Positions 34,385 to 54,427 of a stretch of DNA of 64,000 nucleotides are shown here, piece after piece. The stretch lies in contig PFDS01000040.1 in assembly GCA_002772605.1 (NCBI GenBank), forward strand, positions 14,862 through 78,861. The letters run 5' to 3'. A program made the position numbers and the translations under genes. Position 1 is the stretch's first letter. Every line of letters starts with the position of its first letter. Origin of the DNA: Candidatus Peregrinibacteria bacterium CG10_big_fil_rev_8_21_14_0_10_49_16. GTDB lineage: Bacteria > Patescibacteriota > Gracilibacteria > Peribacterales > Peribacteraceae. Under the pieces are notes generated by a model that did no database searches, had not been told where the DNA came from, and worked only from the letters and a program-made list of their open reading frames with translations.

Positions 34385-34504
34385 TGGTGGACAGCACAGG
34401 ATTCGAATGCTGAAGGCATCCCTTGGGGACCTGTGACCTTTCGGATGTGAACCGAACGCTCTAATCCCGTAAGGGACCCCTTCGGGGCCAGCTGAGCTTA
34501 TTCC
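34385..34504 (-). ncRNA. tRNA-Val(CAC)-derived element with two hairpin insertions and no 5-prime acceptor strand
   Basis: Identical to the intact tRNA-Val over TTAGAGCGTTCGGTTCACATCCGAAAGGTCACAGG and TTCGAATCCTGTGCTGTCCACCA. It carries a 23 nt insert in the D-loop (34465-34487) and a 22 nt insert in the T-arm (34408-34429). The 5-prime end reads GGAATAAGCTCAG rather than GGACAGCTAGCTCAG. Confidence 0.7.
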
Positions 34505-34754
34505 AAAGTAAAAAACGAGTGATGACTAACTTTTCGAGATAGCCAGAAGGCTTTTTGAGGTACCATTCCCTTTTCCTTGCTTCGGAATTGGTCACATATT
34601 CTTCAAAATATGCCAAAAGCAAAGGTCTCCTCCATTTTGTAGAACGAACAGTTCCCGCAAGATGTCTGCACAAACGCTCATGAACATCCAGAGATGTACA
34701 ACCAATGTACCAACCTTGATCTTTCTCACTAAAAAGAAAATACACGTATGCCAT
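34461..34754 (-). CDS. GIY-YIG nuclease family protein (small, UPF0213-like)
   Basis: MAYVYFLFSEKDQGWYIGCTSLDVHERLCRHLAGTVRSTKWRRPLLLAYFEEY...ARKREWYLKK is the GIY-YIG pattern. The ATG lies 7 nt after the tRNA-Val CCA. The upstream part of the ORF in the track reads through the tRNA and is rejected. Confidence 0.75.
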   Translation of the reverse strand: MAYVYFLFSEKDQGWYIGCTSLDVHERLCRHLAGTVRSTKWRRPLLLAYFEEYVTNSEARKREWYLKKPSGYLEKLVITRFLLWNKLSWPRRGPLRD

Positions 34755-34761
34755 AAGAGAA

Positions 34762-34838
34762 TGGTGGACAGCACAGGATTCGAACCTGTGACCTTTCGGA
34801 TGTGAACCGAACGCTCTAACCAACTGAGCTAGCTGTCC
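34762..34838 (-). tRNA. tRNA-Val (anticodon CAC), CCA encoded
   Basis: Acceptor GGACAGC/GCTGTCC, D-arm GCTC-AGTTGGTTA-GAGC, anticodon stem TTCGG/CCGAA with loop TTCACAT, T-arm ACAGG-TTCGAAT-CCTGT. Confidence 0.9.
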
Positions 34839-34930: not shown

Positions 34931-36295
34931 TCAGAAACTCGGCAGGAACCAGAGGCAGATCATGGCGATGAGCGTTGGCGGCAATGCTGCCAGCAGCAAC
35001 CATAACGAACTGATTTCACCGCTCCCGTTCTCCTTGAACGTGGAGTTCAAAATGGAATAGCCCGCCGGGTTTGGGGCATTGGCAATGACGGTCAGGCCAC
35101 CACCAGCTACTGCACCAGCCACTAACGCAAATTTCATCGCCTCGGACAAGTTCGGCACCTGCGACCCAAGGAAGGTCAATGCCGCATTGTCCGTTACGGC
35201 CGTCAGCCCGGTCGTCCCGAGAAACAAGGCTTCAGGACCCATGCTGCCAAGAAGCGGCTCCAGCCACCATCGCTGCAGTCCTCCCAACGTGACCAGCCCT
35301 GCAAGGAAGCCGCCCACGAGGAGACCGCCCTTCAACTTCAGGTCTTCCTGATACTCCTTCGTGACGAAACAGAAGGCCAGGAAGAAGACGAAGATTCCCA
35401 TGAAGATGTCGGGATGATGAGCATGCAGCACCACCAGTGCGAGAGTCGCAATGTGGACACAGGTCACCCACCACGGGGTATTCGGCAGTTTGGCCTCGCC
35501 TTCCCGTCCATGAATGTCGCTATCGCTCAGAAGCGGCAACTTCTTGAGTTCATGGTAGAAGAGCCAAACAAGAAGCGCTGCACTCAACAAAACGGCAGTC
35601 GCTGCCTTGTACCCAAAGTGCGTGAACATATAGGCCATGCCCCAGTTCCATGTTCCCGCAACCATCAGCACCGGCGGCGCCGCGAAGTGCGATAGCGTAC
35701 CCCCAATCGAGACAGACACGAACAGTGTTCCAATCAGCATGTACTTGAACTTCATGCTGATCCCCCGGTCGAAGAACTGCCGCTTCAGTACGAGCGCGGT
35801 CACCGTCATGGCAGCCGGTTCGGTCACCAGGGACCCTAGGAGCGGACCCACCACCATAGCCGACAGGAGAAACCCTGCAGAACCATGGAGAGGGATGAGA
35901 CGTGATACGAGCCGAATCAGCTTGTCGACCATGTCAACCACCGGCTTGGTCGCGGCGATCACCATGATGACGAAGACGAACTTCGGCTCCGTGTAATTCA
36001 ACGACTCAATGTAGTGGACTGCCTCATGCCATCCGTGATGAGCAGACTCCCATGCCGCAGCCAATGACCACCCGTGCTCGAAGTGATGGCTACTTCCCAG
36101 ATAGAAGATCATCACCCCGAAGAGGGCGCCGGCCCACATGAGGAAGACCGCTTCAGTCTCCCCCAACAAGTGGAAGAGATTTTCAAACTTGCTGCCCTCG
36201 GGAAATTTCTCCCCGAGTTTGTGAAACAATTTCGCACAGAACGTGTGCAAAATTGCCAATCCAAAGAGGATTGTCGCCACATGTTCGATTCGCAT
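34931..36295 (-). CDS. putative Na+/H+ antiporter-family membrane protein (Na_H_antiport_2-like)
   Basis: The start at 36295 is preceded by GGAGGAAAC. N-terminus MRIEHVATILFGLAILHTFCAKLF. Polytopic. G+C by hand count is 36/60 at 35221-35280 and 39/60 at 35821-35880. Confidence 0.6.
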   Translation of the reverse strand: MRIEHVATILFGLAILHTFCAKLFHKLGEKFPEGSKFENLFHLLGETEAVFLMWAGALFGVMIFYLGSSHHFEHGWSLAAAWESAHHGWHEAVHYIESLNYTEPKFVFVIMVIAATKPVVDMVDKLIRLVSRLIPLHGSAGFLLSAMVVGPLLGSLVTEPAAMTVTALVLKRQFFDRGISMKFKYMLIGTLFVSVSIGGTLSHFAAPPVLMVAGTWNWGMAYMFTHFGYKAATAVLLSAALLVWLFYHELKKLPLLSDSDIHGREGEAKLPNTPWWVTCVHIATLALVVLHAHHPDIFMGIFVFFLAFCFVTKEYQEDLKLKGGLLVGGFLAGLVTLGGLQRWWLEPLLGSMGPEALFLGTTGLTAVTDNAALTFLGSQVPNLSEAMKFALVAGAVAGGGLTVIANAPNPAGYSILNSTFKENGSGEISSLWLLLAALPPTLIAMICLWFLPSF

Positions 36296-49181: not shown

Positions 49182-51815
49182 TTACTTCTTGGCTGCCGTA
49201 CTGCGTTTTTTGGGCTGTTTGGCTTCTTGTTTGAGTTCTTCAACTTCTTCCGCACGCTGCTCCTTCGCCGCCTCTTCCACCGCCTTCTCCGCCTCAGGAT
49301 CGGCAAGCACAACACTCATACTGGCCACTTTATCCTTTGCTTTCAACCGCATGACAATGACGCCCTGCGTTGCACGACCGCGCGATGGAATGTCTGCAAG
49401 ATCCATGCGAATCGCCTGTCCATTCTTGCTCAAGCAGAGCAAGTCTCCTTTTGAATCATCCAGAAGCACACACCCTCCGACAATTTTGCCTGTCTTCACA
49501 GTGAGTTGCGCAGCTTTGACACCAGTGCCTCCGCGCCCCTGCAGACGGTACTGGCCAACGGGCGTCATCTTGCCAAGGCCGTTCTCCATCACCACAAGCA
49601 CCCGATGCGTTCCCAATCCCTTGCTAATTGCGCCCGCTTCCACCACATAATCCGAACCCGCTAACTTAATGCCGCGCACGCCCGCCGCAGCACGCCCCAT
49701 GGCACGCACATCGTCTTCTTCAAAACGAATGGCCTTGCCTTCGTGCGTGACCAGAAGGATTTCGTCTTTTCCCGTAGTCGTAACCACCCAACGGAGTTCA
49801 TCGCCTTCGGGAAGCTTCTGCGCAATAAGTCCGCTGCGGCGAATATTCTCGAACTCCGTACTATCCGTACGCTTCACCAGACCCTTCCGGGTGACAAGGC
49901 ACAGATACTTCGCACCGACAAAATCCGTACGGAGAATGGCCGAGACACGCTCCTCGGGTTTGAGCTGTAAGAGATTCACAATCGCCTGTCCACGCGCCGT
50001 GCGTCCTGCTTGAGGAAGTTCGTACACCGGAAAGCGGAAGACACGACCGGTATTGGTAAAGAAGAGCAGCTCATCATGATTCATAACATGCAGCAACGAG
50101 AGCACTTCATCATCTTCGCGAATTTCCATACCTTTTACTCCTTTTCCACCACGGTGTTGCGCACGGAACTGCATGGGACTCAAACGCTTCACATATCCAC
50201 TGCGCGTAAGTGTCACGATCATCGGTGCATTGGGAATGGTGTCCTTCGCACTAAACTCCCCGGCGGCAGCCGGAACAACTGTTGTGAGCCGTGCATCTCC
50301 GTAGGTTTCGCGGAGAACACCGAGCTCGTCGGTAAATACTTTGTCGATCTTCTTTGGATCCTTCAAAATCACTTCGCACTCCGCAATGAATTTGAGCTTT
50401 TCCTTGAGTTCGTCTTCCACTTTCTTTCGTTCCAATCCAGCAAGGGTTTGTAAGCGCATTTCGAGAATGGCCTTCGCCTGAATTTCTGTCAGTTTGAATT
50501 TCTTCATGAGTTGCTCACCGGCCACCTCTTTCGTTGCACTCTTCTTGATTGTCTCCACAACTGCATCAATGTTATCGAGTGCTTTTTTGAGACCCTCCAG
50601 AATATGCGCACGTTCTTTCGCACGATCACGGTCAAACGTAATGCGACGAACAATGACCGTGCGTCGATGGTTGATGAAAATTTGGAGAAGTTCCTGCACA
50701 TTCATGAGCTGCGGCTGCAATCCGTCACGCAGTGCAATCATGTTGTACCCAAAACTCGTTTGCAGATCGGTGTGACGGAACAGGAGATTGAGCACCTTCT
50801 GGGGGTAGGCATCTTTCTTCAGTTCGATAATCACACGAATGCCATCACGATCAGACTCATCACGAATATCCGAAATTCCCTGGATGACTTTGTCCTGCAC
50901 CAGCCGCGCCATCTTCTCCACCATTGTGGCCTTATTGACCTGATAGGGAATTTCAGAAATACGAATGTGAAAACGGTTCCCACTCGTCTCTTCGATTTCC
51001 GCCTTCCCCCGCATCACCACCGAGCCGCGCCCGGTGAGGTACGCCTGCTTCAGCGCCTTCTTATCATACACGAAACCTCCTGTTGGAAAGTCAGGACCTT
51101 TAATAAACTTCAGCAAATCTTCCACGGACGCCTCGGGATTCTCAACAAGGTGTAAGACAGCATCGATGAGTTCGTTGAGGTTGTGCGGCGGAATGTTCGT
51201 CGCCATTCCTACGGCGATACCCACGGTTCCGTTTAAGAGCAGGCCCGGCACTTTTGCAGGAAGGACCGTCGGCTCCTTGCGCATTTCATCGTAGTTGGGG
51301 CGGAAATCCACTGTATCCTTCTCAATATCCTGCAGAAGTTCTTCCGTGATCTTCTTCATGCGCGCTTCGGTGTATCGCATCGCTGCAGGACTGTCGCCAT
51401 CTATGGACCCGAAGTTCCCCTGCCCCTCCACAAAAGCGTAACGCATCGAGAACTGCTGTGCCATGCGCACAAGAGCCTCATAAACCGGAACGTCGCCATG
51501 CGGGTGGTAATTACCAATCACGTCTCCGACGATCTTCGCGCACTTACGATACTTCGCCGTATGACGCAGGCCCAGTTCGTGCATGCCGTAGAGAATGCGG
51601 CGATGCACGGGTTTCAAGCCATCGCGCGCATCCGGAAGCGCACGCGACACGATCACACTCATCGCATAGGCCAGGTAACTCTCTTCCATCTCTGCCACAA
51701 TCGGCCGCGGCTGAATGCGGCCAATACTGCTCAATGTCTCTCCTCCTTCTCCGCCTTTCGGCGCAGCAGAAGACTCCTCCCTGCCTGCATCTGAATCGTT
51801 TTTTTTCTTTGGCAT
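49182..51815 (-). CDS. gyrA: DNA gyrase subunit A
   Basis: [28 protein letters not shown], with the active-site tyrosine in [11 protein letters not shown]-terminal beta-pinwheel repeats and a K/E tail. Confidence 0.93.
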
Positions 51816-51867
51816 AGTGTAGTAGCAAGAGTGTAGCGGAAGGGAGGAAGAGAGAAAAGAGAGAAAA

Positions 51868-51902
51868 GTGTGTCACACTGAGCCTGTCGAAGTGCGACAC
51901 AC
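51868..51902. repeat. REP-like hairpin element (GTCAYMCTGAGCC family)
   Basis: GTGTGTCACAC-TGAGCCTGTCGAA-GTGCGACACAC (11 bp stem with one mismatch). It shares a 16-mer with 40795-40810. Confidence 0.75.
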
Positions 51903-51909
51903 TACAAAA

Positions 51910-51933
51910 GGGACTGTCTGGACAGACAGTCCC
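51910..51933 (-). terminator. rho-independent terminator after GC-island gene A
   Basis: GGGACTGTCTG-NN-CAGACAGTCCC is a perfect 11 bp stem, followed on the minus strand by TTTTG. A second hairpin, CGCAACC-TTCG-GGTTGCG, lies at 51939-51956. Confidence 0.65.
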
Positions 51934-51984
51934 CTTGTCGCAACCCGAAGGTTGCGAAATTGTTGCAATGGACCGATACGGTGG

Positions 51985-52773
51985 TTAACCGACATAGTCC
52001 TCGCTGCGAGCCGGCGTTTCGTCGGCGGCCTCGTCGGCTTCGACACTGTCGAAGTCGGGGTCGGCCTGGGCATCCCGATGGGCACGAATCTCCGCAGCCT
52101 CTTCTTCCGTGACGCCCGTCTGGTACGGTTGCAGCTCATGGTAATTGCCGCAAACCGGGCACCAGCCCATCTTGGGTTCGGCGTCGTCGTCGTCATCATC
52201 GGAAATGCCCGCCTGTGCGCGATGCCACTCCGCCTGCCGTTGCCGCTCCGCATCCTCGGCCGGCGACCGGCCGATCGGATAGAGGGAAGCACCGACCAGT
52301 GGCTCGACATCGTCGTCAGCGAGTTCGGTGATCTCCTCTCGTCCGTCCCCATCGGGGTTGCGAACGACCACGACTTTTACCATTCGCGGCTGCTCGTCAC
52401 CGCCACCGAAGAGGTCGGAGAGGCTGAGAATCTGCAGACCCCCGCCACCGGACTGGGCCTTGCGCATCAGCGTGGCCATGGGATCCTCCGGCCGCTCCTC
52501 GACGGTTCCGACCAGGAACTCCCGAGGCCCCCGGTAGATCGCCACGGCACCGTTGTCGGGAAGCGGATTGCCGTCGATGATGCCCTCCGTGAGGAAGTGA
52601 TATTCCTGCCGGAAGATGGCGCCGACCGGCGGTTCCAGATCACCCGGACGCACGTTGGCCTCCGGCAACTCCACCGTACTGATGGAGCCCTGGAACCCGA
52701 AGTACGCCATGAGAACCTTTCGCTGACCGTTGATCGTGACAGCATCACCCGTGCGAACGTTTTGCGTCGCCAT
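51985..52773 (-). CDS. GC-island protein A, acidic, unknown function (262 aa)
   Basis: AGGAG lies 9 nt before the ATG at 52773. Third codon positions are G/C-rich. The product contains GWCPVCGNYHE, DDDDDD and an acidic tail. No family recognised. Confidence 0.65.
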   Translation of the reverse strand: MATQNVRTGDAVTINGQRKVLMAYFGFQGSISTVELPEANVRPGDLEPPVGAIFRQEYHFLTEGIIDGNPLPDNGAVAIYRGPREFLVGTVEERPEDPMATLMRKAQSGGGGLQILSLSDLFGGGDEQPRMVKVVVVRNPDGDGREEITELADDDVEPLVGASLYPIGRSPAEDAERQRQAEWHRAQAGISDDDDDDAEPKMGWCPVCGNYHELQPYQTGVTEEEAAEIRAHRDAQADPDFDSVEADEAADETPARSEDYVG

Positions 52774-52892
52774 GAGAAATTTCTCCTGTTGAAAATGTCC
52801 ATTGCAAAAGATCAAGCCCGGCAAACGCTGCCGGGCCCGTTCCTCCGCGATTCGCGAATGTGTGGACCCTGGCACGCGCCAGGACTTGGGAG

Positions 52893-52921
52893 AGGATAAG
52901 GATAGCATTGACAAAAGTCAA
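52893..52921 (-). promoter_or_regulatory. sigma70-like promoter for gene A, overlapped by a palindrome
   Basis: Minus strand: TTGACT-N17-TATCCT in an AT-rich patch. The palindrome TTGACAAAAGTCAA (52908-52921) covers the -35 box. Confidence 0.45.
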
Positions 52922-53009
52922 ATGTATTTTATGTAAATATTTTTAAACATATGGAAAGGACCACTCCTTGTGAGAGTGGCCCTTCGTTGTTTCGCGCGGT
53001 GAATCTCGA

Positions 53010-53216
53010 TCAGTTGTGGTACGTGCCGCAATTGGGGCAGAGCGGCAGCCCCTCCTCATTGTACGGGGGCAGGTCCACCGTCACGTCACTGTCGGCCAGC
53101 AACTCCGGCGGAACCGGGATGTCGGTCTGGACCAGACGGACCAGAACGACGCCCGGCGCGACCTCGTCGAGCTTGAGGGAAGTGATACGGAGGACGGGGG
53201 TGGCGTTGTTCGCCAT
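53010..53216 (-). CDS. GC-island protein B, unknown function (68 aa)
   Basis: AAGGAG lies 8 nt before the ATG at 53216. The product ends in LCPNCGTYHN. No family recognised. Confidence 0.6.
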   Translation of the reverse strand: MANNATPVLRITSLKLDEVAPGVVLVRLVQTDIPVPPELLADSDVTVDLPPYNEEGLPLCPNCGTYHN

Positions 53217-53322
53217 GTTCGAAACTCCTTCAGTTGAGATTCGTGCGAAAGAACTTTTCCCAGCGTACATAGCCGGGAGCTCCCTCGCACTGTGCGAGAC
53301 AGTCCCAGAAACTGGGATGGAA

Positions 53323-53351
53323 ATAATACTTAATTTTTAACCTACTGTCAA
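53323..53351 (-). promoter_or_regulatory. near-consensus sigma70 promoter for gene B
   Basis: Minus strand: TTGACA (53346-53351), 17 nt spacer, TATTAT (53323-53328). Confidence 0.6.
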
Positions 53352-53410
53352 GCAGGCCAACGCGGTGTACGCATTGGCCTGTTTTTGCATGGTTTTTGCC
53401 CCTTTTGCAT

Positions 53411-53614
53411 TTAGCGGGTGTAGGCCTCATGGATGACGTCATCCACCTCGCGTAGCGGTGGCGATTCCAGCCACAGCGGCTGCTCGGTCACCACAATGCG
53501 CAAGATGAGGACAAAGGACAGTTCCAGACCGTCCTCCCCTCCCTTCCGCTCCGCTTTTCGCGGATCGCCTTTCATGGATGACGCCAAAAGGCCACTCAGA
53601 AGTCGCATCTGCAT
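53411..53614 (-). CDS. GC-island protein C, unknown function (67 aa)
   Basis: AAGGAGA lies 9 nt before the ATG at 53614. Only the 3-prime part of track ORF 53411..54034 is kept, because the rest is antisense to rsmI. Confidence 0.45.
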   Translation of the reverse strand: MQMRLLSGLLASSMKGDPRKAERKGGEDGLELSFVLILRIVVTEQPLWLESPPLREVDDVIHEAYTR

Positions 53615-53755
53615 ACTCTTCAGTCTCCTTGAGAACCATGCGAAAGAACGTGGCTTAGACACCTCGTCAAACCACCCTCTTCCGTCTAAACCGCCACTCA
53701 GTGTGTGAAGAGTTCGCTGCAAGTCAAGGGTCAAAAGGAGTATTCTTCTAAATAC

Positions 53756-54427
53756 ATGCTTTCCATCGTCTCCACCCCTATCGGCAATCTCGGTGACATC
53801 ACACTGCGCGCCCTTGAAACACTGAAGGAATGTGATGCCATCGTGTGTGAAGATACGCGAGTCACGGGAAAACTCCTCCAGATGCTGGATCTCCCGAAGA
53901 AGGAACTCATCAGCCTGCACGGGTATTCCGACACGAAGAAAATCAATGCCATCCTCAAGCGACTCGCAGAAGGAGCACATCTTGCTCTCGTCTCCGACGC
54001 CGGCACACCATGCATCAGTGATCCGGGATATCAACTAGTGAGTGTCGCCCTTCGACAGGGTGACACTCATCAAGTCGAAGTCATCCCCGGACCTTCCGCA
54101 TTCCTTGCTGCCCTCTCCGCATCAGGCCTCCCCATCAATCAATTTCTCTACCTCGGATTTCTTCCATTGAAGAAAGGACGTCAAACACTTCTTGCATCAT
54201 TCACAGAAGAGAAACGCACGATTGTCTTCTACGAATCCGTCCATCGCATAGAAAAAACACTTCGCGAACTCGTGGGCGCACTGCGTGATCAACCCAACCG
54301 TGACATCGTCATCTGTCGTGAACTGACAAAAATGCACGAAGAAATTCTTCGCACAACGGTTGCGGAACTTGCGAGTATTTCTCTTACACAAAAAGGAGAA
54401 TTCGTCATTGTCATTGGAGCAGTGTAG
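53756..54427 (+). CDS. rsmI: 16S rRNA (cytidine1402-2-prime-O)-methyltransferase RsmI
   Basis: MLSIVSTPIGNLGDITLRALETL, DAGTPCISDPG. Confidence 0.88.
   Translation: MLSIVSTPIGNLGDITLRALETLKECDAIVCEDTRVTGKLLQMLDLPKKELISLHGYSDTKKINAILKRLAEGAHLALVSDAGTPCISDPGYQLVSVALRQGDTHQVEVIPGPSAFLAALSASGLPINQFLYLGFLPLKKGRQTLLASFTEEKRTIVFYESVHRIEKTLRELVGALRDQPNRDIVICRELTKMHEEILRTTVAELASISLTQKGEFVIVIGAV

Follow-up and report, generated by a model that had tools for sequence, protein, structure and literature searches.

The DNA considered here is a 64,000-nucleotide (nt) stretch of contig PFDS01000040.1 of Candidatus Peregrinibacteria bacterium CG10_big_fil_rev_8_21_14_0_10_49_16, referred to below as the window, and the subject is a GC-rich block that separates the divergent core genes rsmI and gyrA in it. 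As shown in Table 1, the block holds three minus-strand genes, which are named C, B and A in the order in which they lie between rsmI and gyrA, and each is preceded by a 5′ region that folds into a long hairpin. It is considered probable that the block is a genuine trio of autonomous genes that belong to, or derive from, a family found in Peribacteria only, in which the leader is better conserved than the acidic proteins encoded behind it, and that the block is not demonstrably foreign. An earlier note made from the letters of the window (the original prediction) had described it as a recently acquired, self-contained cassette inserted between two core genes.

Table 1. Features of the interval between gyrA and rsmI, in window coordinates (aa, amino acids; ORF, open reading frame; MFE, minimum free energy; L001, L004 and L005, compared contigs and loci).
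Feature	Position	Strand	Basis
gyrA, flanking core gene, 3′ of A on the same strand	49182..51815	-	ORF list; Pfam DNA_topoisoIV and DNA_gyraseA_C on the identical L001 gene
Remnant of the ancestral gyrA-rsmI spacer (agtgtagtagcaagagtgtagcgg), corresponding to the entire 22-bp L005 spacer	51816..51839		Sequence comparison
Segment of ~1.9 kb with all three cassettes; absent from L005	51840..53755		Comparison with L005
Three consecutive hairpins after A: 51939-51956 (UUCG loop), 51907-51936 and 51867-51903	51867..51956	-	MFE -56 kcal/mol, z = -6.0
Gene A, 262 aa	51985..52773	-	Family homologues, isoelectric point, charge
5′ leader of A: small hairpin and long hairpin (~52797-52867)	52774..52886	-	Fold z = -3.6
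Promoter-like site of A: TTGACT-17-TATCCT	52893..52921	-	9/12 match
Terminator-like hairpin 3′ of B: 13-bp stem, then UUUCCAUAUGUUU	52955..52985	-	Fold
Gene B, 68 aa	53010..53216	-	Knuckle match, profile comparison
5′ leader of B: long hairpin (~53245-53289), 3′ strand with exact motif GTTCTTTCGCA (53244-53254)	53217..53322	-	Fold z = -4.0
Breakpoint of strain variant L004	53307..53308		Contig comparison
Near-consensus sigma70-type promoter of B: TTGACA-17-TATTAT	53323..53351	-	11/12 match
12-bp hairpin between C and B	53350..53384		Fold z = -3.1
Gene C, 67 aa	53411..53614	-	ORF, composition
5′ region of C: exact motif GTTCTTTCGCA (53639-53649) in a long hairpin	53615..53727	-	Fold z = -2.6
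rsmI, divergent flanking core gene	53756..54427	+	ORF list; TP_methylase

The composition of the block departs strongly from that of the window. The GC content of A, B and C is 64.1%, 65.2% and 58.8%, respectively, while the two intergenic spacers have 47.9% each; over the span 51860–53660 it is 58.5%, compared with a mean of 47.9% for the 64 kb, and the best 300-nt segment of the block reaches 66.7%. Among 750-nt segments (standard deviation 3.5%), the maximum of 64.8% at 52001 lies ~4.8 standard deviations above the mean and is the strongest GC excursion of the whole window. The value of 70% GC that had been given for the block is true of selected 60-nt lines alone, although the hand counts behind it (42, 42, 42, 29 and 34 per 60 nt) are exact. 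The only other stretch of the window with at least 60% GC, 35051–35350, is within an ordinary putative Na+/H+ antiporter gene (PF07399, 34931–36349, minus strand).

In the minus frames, the GC content of the first, second and third codon positions (GC1/GC2/GC3) is 0.74/0.44/0.75 for A, 0.68/0.41/0.87 for B and 0.68/0.38/0.71 for C, compared with 0.63/0.38/0.58 for gyrA; the GC3 of the block (0.71–0.87) against that of the neighbouring genes (0.50–0.58) is the deviant composition of a genomic island, and the G/C-rich third positions noticed earlier are thereby borne out. About 55% of the GC excess of gene A lies in third positions and about 45% comes from a protein composition rich in Gly, Ala, Pro, Asp, Glu and Val. 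The three minus-strand ORFs were described correctly in the original prediction; each starts with ATG behind an AGGAG-type Shine–Dalgarno sequence, and all are called by three gene callers from independent sources. The high GC content in a lower-GC genome, which is typical of structured RNAs, and the long plus-strand ORF (343 aa, 51868–52899) might also be read as signs that the DNA is not coding on the minus strand, being either a structured RNA or a real plus-strand gene; the GC1 > GC2 < GC3 periodicity of the minus frames, the full-length protein homologues of the minus frame of A, the agreement of the gene callers and the lack of any Rfam match make this very improbable, and the homologues of A also agree with the earlier dismissal of the plus-strand ORF as antisense noise.

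The block is a genuine, correctly assembled chromosomal segment. The order rsmI-C-B-A-gyrA is identical in a 105-kb ENA contig, with both junctions the same; the rsmI-C-B-A part, including the rsmI-side junction, is found in two Logan assemblies, and B-A in one JGI contig. Two NCBI metagenome-assembled genomes (MAGs) of Candidatus Peregrinibacteria (contigs of 102–110 kb) hold all three proteins (COU77_02930-40 and COW95_02445-55), annotated as hypothetical in both. An assembly chimera or a binning contaminant could be suspected from the sharp compositional contrast and from several short contigs (three independent ones, L002, L003 and L004) that end just downstream of A, at 51871 and 51918; however, hairpins 1 and 2 3′ of A are perfect palindromes, and the contig ends fall within them. 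Perfect palindromes are break points of de Bruijn graph assembly, and the contig ends most likely represent such a graph break and not biological variation. The chimera that had been raised as a possibility with the original prediction is contradicted by at least five independent assemblies that carry the block, and an artefact of either kind is hardly credible.

The product of gene A has an isoelectric point (pI) of 4.24 and a net charge of −31, and its N-terminal part is a beta domain; the motif GASLYPIGRSPAE lies at the centre, the sequence WCPVCGNYH provides a C-x2-C-x3-H knuckle, and the acidic tail contains DPDFD. A phmmer search with A against 1.84 billion representative proteins found nine relatives of 177–266 aa (E = 1e-9 to 1e-3), which align over most of their length; the nearest sampled homologues are 31–37% identical. 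The family alignment contains 15 invariant columns, among them Y24, G29, P43, P49, G51, F86, L87, G89, L151, P158, G168, S170, P171 and E173, and A runs through the alignment at full length. The family is characterized by the N-terminal beta domain, an FLRGRVV motif that is degenerate in A (FLVGTV), a centre of the form DGTEVGIPLxDDDVPPPxGASPYAVGESPEE, and an optional C-x2-C-x3-H knuckle, which half of the family does not have; the tails are acidic and of two types, DxDFD, as in A, or GGGHPVIP, with the DPDFD of A recurring in P0006, P0007 and P0010. All members, A included, are very acidic (pI 4.1–4.5, net charge −20 to −32). As judged from this alignment, A is a divergent full-length member of a previously undescribed family restricted to Peribacteria. 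The products of the family might be cytoplasmic, rapidly diversifying, very acidic Zn-knuckle binders or mimic-type proteins.

Searches of curated collections gave little. Pfam, NCBIfam and PHROGs returned nothing above chance for A, B and C (no Pfam or NCBIfam match at E ≤ 1); Pfam, PHROGs and PADLOC gave chance-level matches of single members for 10–11 family proteins, and a PDB sequence profile search with the family gave one chance match. A word-indexed search of 5.8 billion proteins returned self matches only for A and B, and short-contig members only for the family profile; a literature search yielded background on Peribacteria only. The AlphaFold2 model is good for P0007, a typical member of the family (predicted local distance difference test, pLDDT, 79.6) and mediocre for A (pLDDT 62), and Foldseek found no match better than E ~0.1 for the P0007 model in PDB and BFVD or for the A model in PDB, so the structural check that had been proposed alongside the original prediction found nothing in PDB for A. 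The earlier statement that no family could be recognized for any product holds for the curated libraries (Pfam, NCBIfam and PHROGs) but not for A, whose family emerged from the exhaustive phmmer search.

Gene B encodes a protein of pI 4.2 whose C-terminal end is the same knuckle as that of A (CPNCGTYH); the B–A similarity has E = 8e-4, hhalign aligns nine columns (E = 2.4e-4), and the N-terminus of B, MANN..., may be compared with family members that begin with MANQ or MANP. Probably, B is a miniature form derived from the A family; it keeps the family-type leader, the start and the C-x2-C-x3-H knuckle. The product of gene C has a pI of 5.3 and shows no relation to the family profile at the protein level; by this comparison C is an orphan whose ORF follows the same leader motif.

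The 5′ region is the most constant part of the family. Eight family genes outside the window are preceded by a promoter (CCATTGACTTTT...TATAGT) and a leader of ~95 nt, and among them the upstream 130 nt (promoter plus leader) are 74% identical on average, compared with 57% for the coding sequence at the nucleotide level and 35% at the amino acid level. When L092 is compared with L085, the promoter and leader are the best-conserved stretch of the locus (0.77–0.88, against 0.68–0.81 for rsmI); past the ATG there is a sharp drop to 0.34–0.46, a central coding segment recovers to 0.62–0.80, and the tail is divergent. Single-sequence folds of the family leaders concur on one long hairpin of ~80 nt, in which 92% of cells are paired, compared with 40–50% in slid controls; the four compensatory pairs are suggestive but thin support, the alignment having eight sequences and an effective number of 2.6. 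An RNAalifold consensus on a mixed alignment gave a different, weak pairing and was set aside, the single-sequence folds being more consistent. The leaders of the window island and of six family loci have no match in Rfam 15 (4227 families) at E ≤ 1. The leader hairpin may serve in post-transcriptional control or as a stability element, and may be subject to strong purifying selection.

Traits of the same module recur in the window. A profile of the eight upstream regions has a single significant match there, at 53338–53210 (E = 0.0022), which covers the promoter, the leader and the start of B with the start codons aligned. The window contains three copies of the core motif GTTCYTTYGCA, compared with 0.23 expected, and none of 100 shuffles reaches three; two of the three copies lie ~30 nt 5′ of the start codons of B and C. 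The third exact copy of GTTCTTTCGCA, at 50612–50622, is antisense within gyrA, and a similar gyrA position carries it in L095; conservation of the coding sequence, independent of the leaders, is its probable cause. Each leader in the family contains the motif once, while 77 other loci contain three strays in total, and the full 5′ module stands upstream of family genes only in 1.36 Mb of loci. The leader of A carries a variant, GATCTTTTGCA, which differs from the family motif at two positions, on the 3′ strand of its long hairpin, an architecture like that of the family leader; the leaders of B and C share a repeat matching at 18 of 21 positions (53629–53649 and 53234–53254), and by fold all three leaders have the same long-hairpin design. 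Since the motif is found 5′ of B and C and, as a variant, 5′ of A, the island can be regarded as three related cassettes.

The transcription signals agree with the term "self-contained" used earlier, as the genes form transcription units with promoters, leaders and hairpins. Of the sigma70-like boxes reported between the ORFs, those of B and A stand, while that of C is not convincing, a weak −35 sequence TTGACT being found upstream of C at 53722–53727. The three hairpins that had been noticed at the gyrA-side border are real; those at 51907–51936 and 51867–51903 are each followed by a U-tract, and the triple hairpin probably insulates gyrA as a set of tandem terminators. Between C and B, the hairpin at 53350–53390 has its T-run on the plus-strand side and reads as a plus-strand terminator, yet the plus strand has no gene ending at this point.

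With RsmI as the query, 27 Peribacteria loci were retrieved from GTDB representatives, and gyrA and rsmI are divergent neighbours in all 27. In the closest relative, L005, whose gyrA is 88% identical to that of the window at the amino acid level, the start codons of the two genes are 22 bp apart; the ~1.9 kb at 51840–53755 is therefore extra in the window. The flanks are uniformly 0.66–0.81 identical to L005 up to both borders, and recombination tracts or co-transferred DNA, which were looked for in the flanks against L005, were rejected. The nearest relative is ~25% diverged at the nucleotide level, too far to date the arrival as "recent". Other relatives have different cargo in the same gap: L017 (1182–3947) and L027 (2909–4673) carry a related membrane protein of ~520 aa, and L018, L022 and L030 carry small ORFs; these inserts are unrelated to the block and none is GC-deviant, and the slot is thus a recurrent insertion site. 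The 22-bp spacer of L005 (L005:9979–10000) implies that the gyrA and rsmI promoters must each lie within the other gene there; a GCTACACT box just 5′ of the gyrA ATG is kept in both the window and L005, and the island thus gives gyrA and rsmI new upstream DNA.

Every family member that can be placed sits on a Peregrinibacteria or Peribacteria contig. In L085, L087 and L092 the family gene is divergent from a Peribacteria-type rsmI, and L092 runs on into gyrA; the 33.5-kb JGI contig L095 shows the complete synteny pgi-ruvA-rsmI|A-homologue|gyrA-hrcA-VirD4-like. In the RsmI tree, L085, L087, L092 and L095 form one clade, while the window pairs with L005, which has no family gene. Comparable syntenic blocks in relatives, which the original prediction had named as counter-evidence to itself, are thus found in part, in that the A family occupies the same slot in these four loci. 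A second context is found in L089 (an NCBI Peregrinibacteria MAG) and L093, where the gene lies between a 178-aa membrane protein and trpR.

The GC content itself accompanies the family. The GC3 of family genes is 0.70–0.82 against 0.45–0.68 in neighbouring genes in six of seven lineages (the window, L089, L092, L085, L087 and L093), an excess of 0.10–0.25; in L089 a family gene of 63% GC lies in a genome of 50% GC. It follows that the high GC is mostly a family trait and not a time stamp of arrival. This bears on the view taken in the original prediction, namely a recent foreign cassette from an unrelated high-GC donor, phage or plasmid that has not yet ameliorated. Such a cassette would account for a GC of 59–65% against 48% in the window, for the absence of the block from L005, for the self-contained transcription units and for the insertion sequence (IS) transposase of IS30 type that adjoins B in a strain variant. 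On the other hand, searches of 1.84 billion and of 5.8 billion proteins give homologues in Peregrinibacteria only, and none is found in IMG/VR (searched with the protein profile and the leader pattern) or, by tblastn, among INPHARED phages and PLSDB plasmids; no donor outside the host clade is identified among the homologues, family members fill this slot in the sister clade too and are rich in GC in most hosts, and the borders are without integrase, tRNA or direct repeats. A foreign origin of this kind is unlikely. The earlier wording stands in so far as the block is extra DNA relative to L005, deviant in composition and built of self-contained units; "recently acquired" in the sense of foreign DNA is not supported, given a family confined to Peregrinibacteria/Peribacteria, present in the same slot of a sister clade and GC-rich in six of seven lineages.

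Signs of mobility are few. There is no integrase among the genes called within 10 kb on either side, no tRNA at the borders (the nearest is 3.5 kb away), and no direct repeat at the borders beyond chance-length matches. A 21-nt imperfect inverted repeat (51827–51847 and 53538–53558), considered as terminal repeats of a mobile element, is at chance level for 2 kb and was rejected; so was the 10-mer GGGACTGTCT (53297–53306 and hairpin 2), likewise at chance level for 2 kb, though it coincides with the L004 breakpoint. Over B and A, from 53307 to 51919, the sequence of the JGI contig L004 is almost that of the window, and in its positions 1–240 the N-terminus of an IS30-type transposase (HTH_38, E = 8e-15), divergent from B, stands in place of the promoter of B and of the C side; the 64-kb window itself has no copy of this element. 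In L004, a 15-nt patch at 51974–51988, right after the A stop, has eight mismatches and one indel and changes TAA to TGA, while the flanking 1.3 kb are identical; it looks like a small replaced segment.

Transfer within the class is a more serious alternative than a foreign donor, and it is held to be possible, though not favoured: the array, or A and B only, would have passed from a higher-GC Peribacteria lineage (genomes of 58–61% GC exist) into the 48% GC lineage at the homologous slot, so that the GC excess would combine a donor signature with the family trait. Peribacteria loci span 43% to 61% GC, and the GC3 of A (0.75) and B (0.87) is as expected from genomes of ~60% GC; in addition, the sister L005 has no family gene while a more distant clade has one in the same slot, the A tree and the RsmI tree look incongruent, and the L092 gene is of the knuckle type while those of L085, L087 and L095 are not, behind nearly identical leaders. 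However, no donor is identified, the nearest homologue being 31–37% identical to A; identity to L005 stays even along the flanks, where no tract of recombination is seen; and the GC3 of the family exceeds that of the host inside the higher-GC clade as well.

The preferred explanation is that of a gene family restricted to Peribacteria. The block would be an accessory segment, in the divergent rsmI|gyrA slot, of a Crystal Geyser Peribacteria genome (Peregrinibacteria, Candidate Phyla Radiation, CPR), composed of the autonomous cassettes C, B and A, in each of which an ORF has its own promoter, a structured leader at the 5′ end and a hairpin. The 5′ module that they share, in which a sigma70-type promoter is combined with a long leader hairpin that has GUUCYUUYGCA on its 3′ strand, would be the hallmark of the family, and the high GC, which appears in most hosts, would be mainly intrinsic to the family and carry no mark of recent foreign origin. 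Within Peribacteria, the array may have arisen through duplication or insertion of cassettes; the difference from the nearest relative may reflect either a gain, with cassettes inserted or exchanged among Peribacteria, or a loss on the side of that relative. The variable N-terminal domain and tail of the products may recognize changing partners.

Several observations weigh against this explanation. The IS30-type transposase adjoining B in the strain variant makes the involvement of a mobile element possible. None of the 27 Peribacteria loci of GTDB representatives, sister L005 included, yields a match to the family hidden Markov model, and the patchy distribution of the family is compatible with horizontal gain; the family gene of L095, the one exception among the seven lineages, is not GC-rich (GC3 0.63). 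A covariance model (R1) built from the eight non-window leaders recovers none of the leaders of A, B and C, its best matches lying elsewhere at E ≥ 0.57, so that the leader homology rests on a modest profile E-value, the 11-mer and similar folds. At the protein level, the relationship of B to A extends over 9–12 residues only, and the Pfam, NCBIfam, PHROGs, PADLOC, PDB sequence and Foldseek searches, all negative, give no direct clue to protein function.

Among known systems, genomic islets at intergenic hotspots are the closest: the block is extra DNA of deviant composition between conserved core genes, is absent from the nearest relative, lies in a gap where other relatives hold different cargo, and has an IS element near it in a strain variant. 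It differs from them in that it is without integrase, tRNA and direct repeats, its GC excess travels with the family, and its cargo is not foreign, the family being confined to the same class and present in the same slot of a sister clade. The feature is an accessory islet of a familiar kind at a hotspot, and its unusual aspect is a regulatory leader more conserved than the cargo. Integron cassette arrays likewise have tandem small ORFs with hairpin-forming elements between them; unlike in these, every cassette of the block is served by a separate promoter, and its hairpin lies 5′ of the ORF in place of an attC at the 3′ end, there is no intI within 10 kb on either side, and on inspection the hairpins have no RYYYAAC/GTTRRRY cores, no dedicated attC model having been run. 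Structured 5′ leaders of mRNAs, such as ribosomal-protein or riboswitch-like leaders, resemble the family leader in that a hairpin of ~80 nt between the promoter and the Shine–Dalgarno sequence is more conserved than the coding sequence and shows some compensatory changes; the differences are that the family leader matches none of the 4227 Rfam families, that no ligand or protein partner is known, and that the covariation is thin at this sampling.

The likeness to YacG-type or DNA-mimic gyrase modulators, which are small Zn-binding acidic proteins, lies in the small size and strong acidity of the products, in a CPxCG motif that resembles a zinc knuckle, and in the position of the gene immediately upstream of gyrA in the window and in one clade. 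On the other side, the family matches neither YacG (PF03884) nor any DNA-mimic family in sequence or profile, the motif of A and B has two Cys and one His instead of C4, half of the family is without a knuckle, and the gene lies away from gyrA in L089 and L093. Membership as a YacG-like gyrase inhibitor or DNA mimic was tried and rejected, with no Pfam or NCBIfam match at E ≤ 1 for A, B, C or 10 family members and no Foldseek match in PDB; only the adjacency and a YacG-like flavour suggest a link to gyrase. A broader proposal, which we put forward tentatively and as doubtful, is that of a cassette system of Peribacteria in which a fixed consensus promoter and a structured leader RNA of ~80 nt, itself a new cis-regulatory motif, would drive interchangeable, rapidly diversifying acidic proteins, some with a Zn knuckle and some not; the coding modules would be swapped or diversified behind the leader, and the cassettes could be multiplied in tandem (C-B-A) and relocated (L089, L093), a pattern typical of loci of conflict or recognition, for example in phage or host interaction, or the proteins could act as mimic-type modulators of DNA enzymes such as gyrase. 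Should the proteins be mimic or decoy binders or conflict factors, they would be a new functional class for CPR; otherwise the block would be an ordinary islet of orphan genes.

CPR bacteria have streamlined genomes of ~1 Mb with many lineage-specific genes of unknown function, and to our knowledge almost nothing is known about their gene regulation. A Peribacteria-only family whose promoter and leader are more conserved than housekeeping rsmI, while its acidic proteins diverge fast, is of interest in this respect, and the leader is a candidate new regulatory RNA motif in CPR. The rsmI|gyrA slot is a defined hotspot at which gene gain and loss can be traced in uncultivated organisms, and the case also advises caution, as GC-rich "islands" can be intrinsic to a family and are not proof of recent foreign DNA.

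Some minor features of the neighbourhood were also observed. rsmI and ruvA overlap in the window (54408–54427), are ~45 bp apart in L005 and 0.2–4 kb apart in most other Peribacteria (L006–L031), so that the rsmI-ruvA gap is a second variable slot beside gyrA|rsmI. RsmI of the clade with the A family in the slot (L095:8874–9677, L085:36–797) has a variable internal insertion of 30–45 aa, which RsmI of the window does not have. Elsewhere in the window, a small ORF with a GIY-YIG nuclease domain (34461–34754, minus strand) lies directly downstream of a tRNA-Val gene (34762–34838). Near the locus in the same genome, L001:3208–5395 contains two tandem genes with DUF1246 and DUF1297 domains, which we take to be PurP-like genes of the archaeal type.

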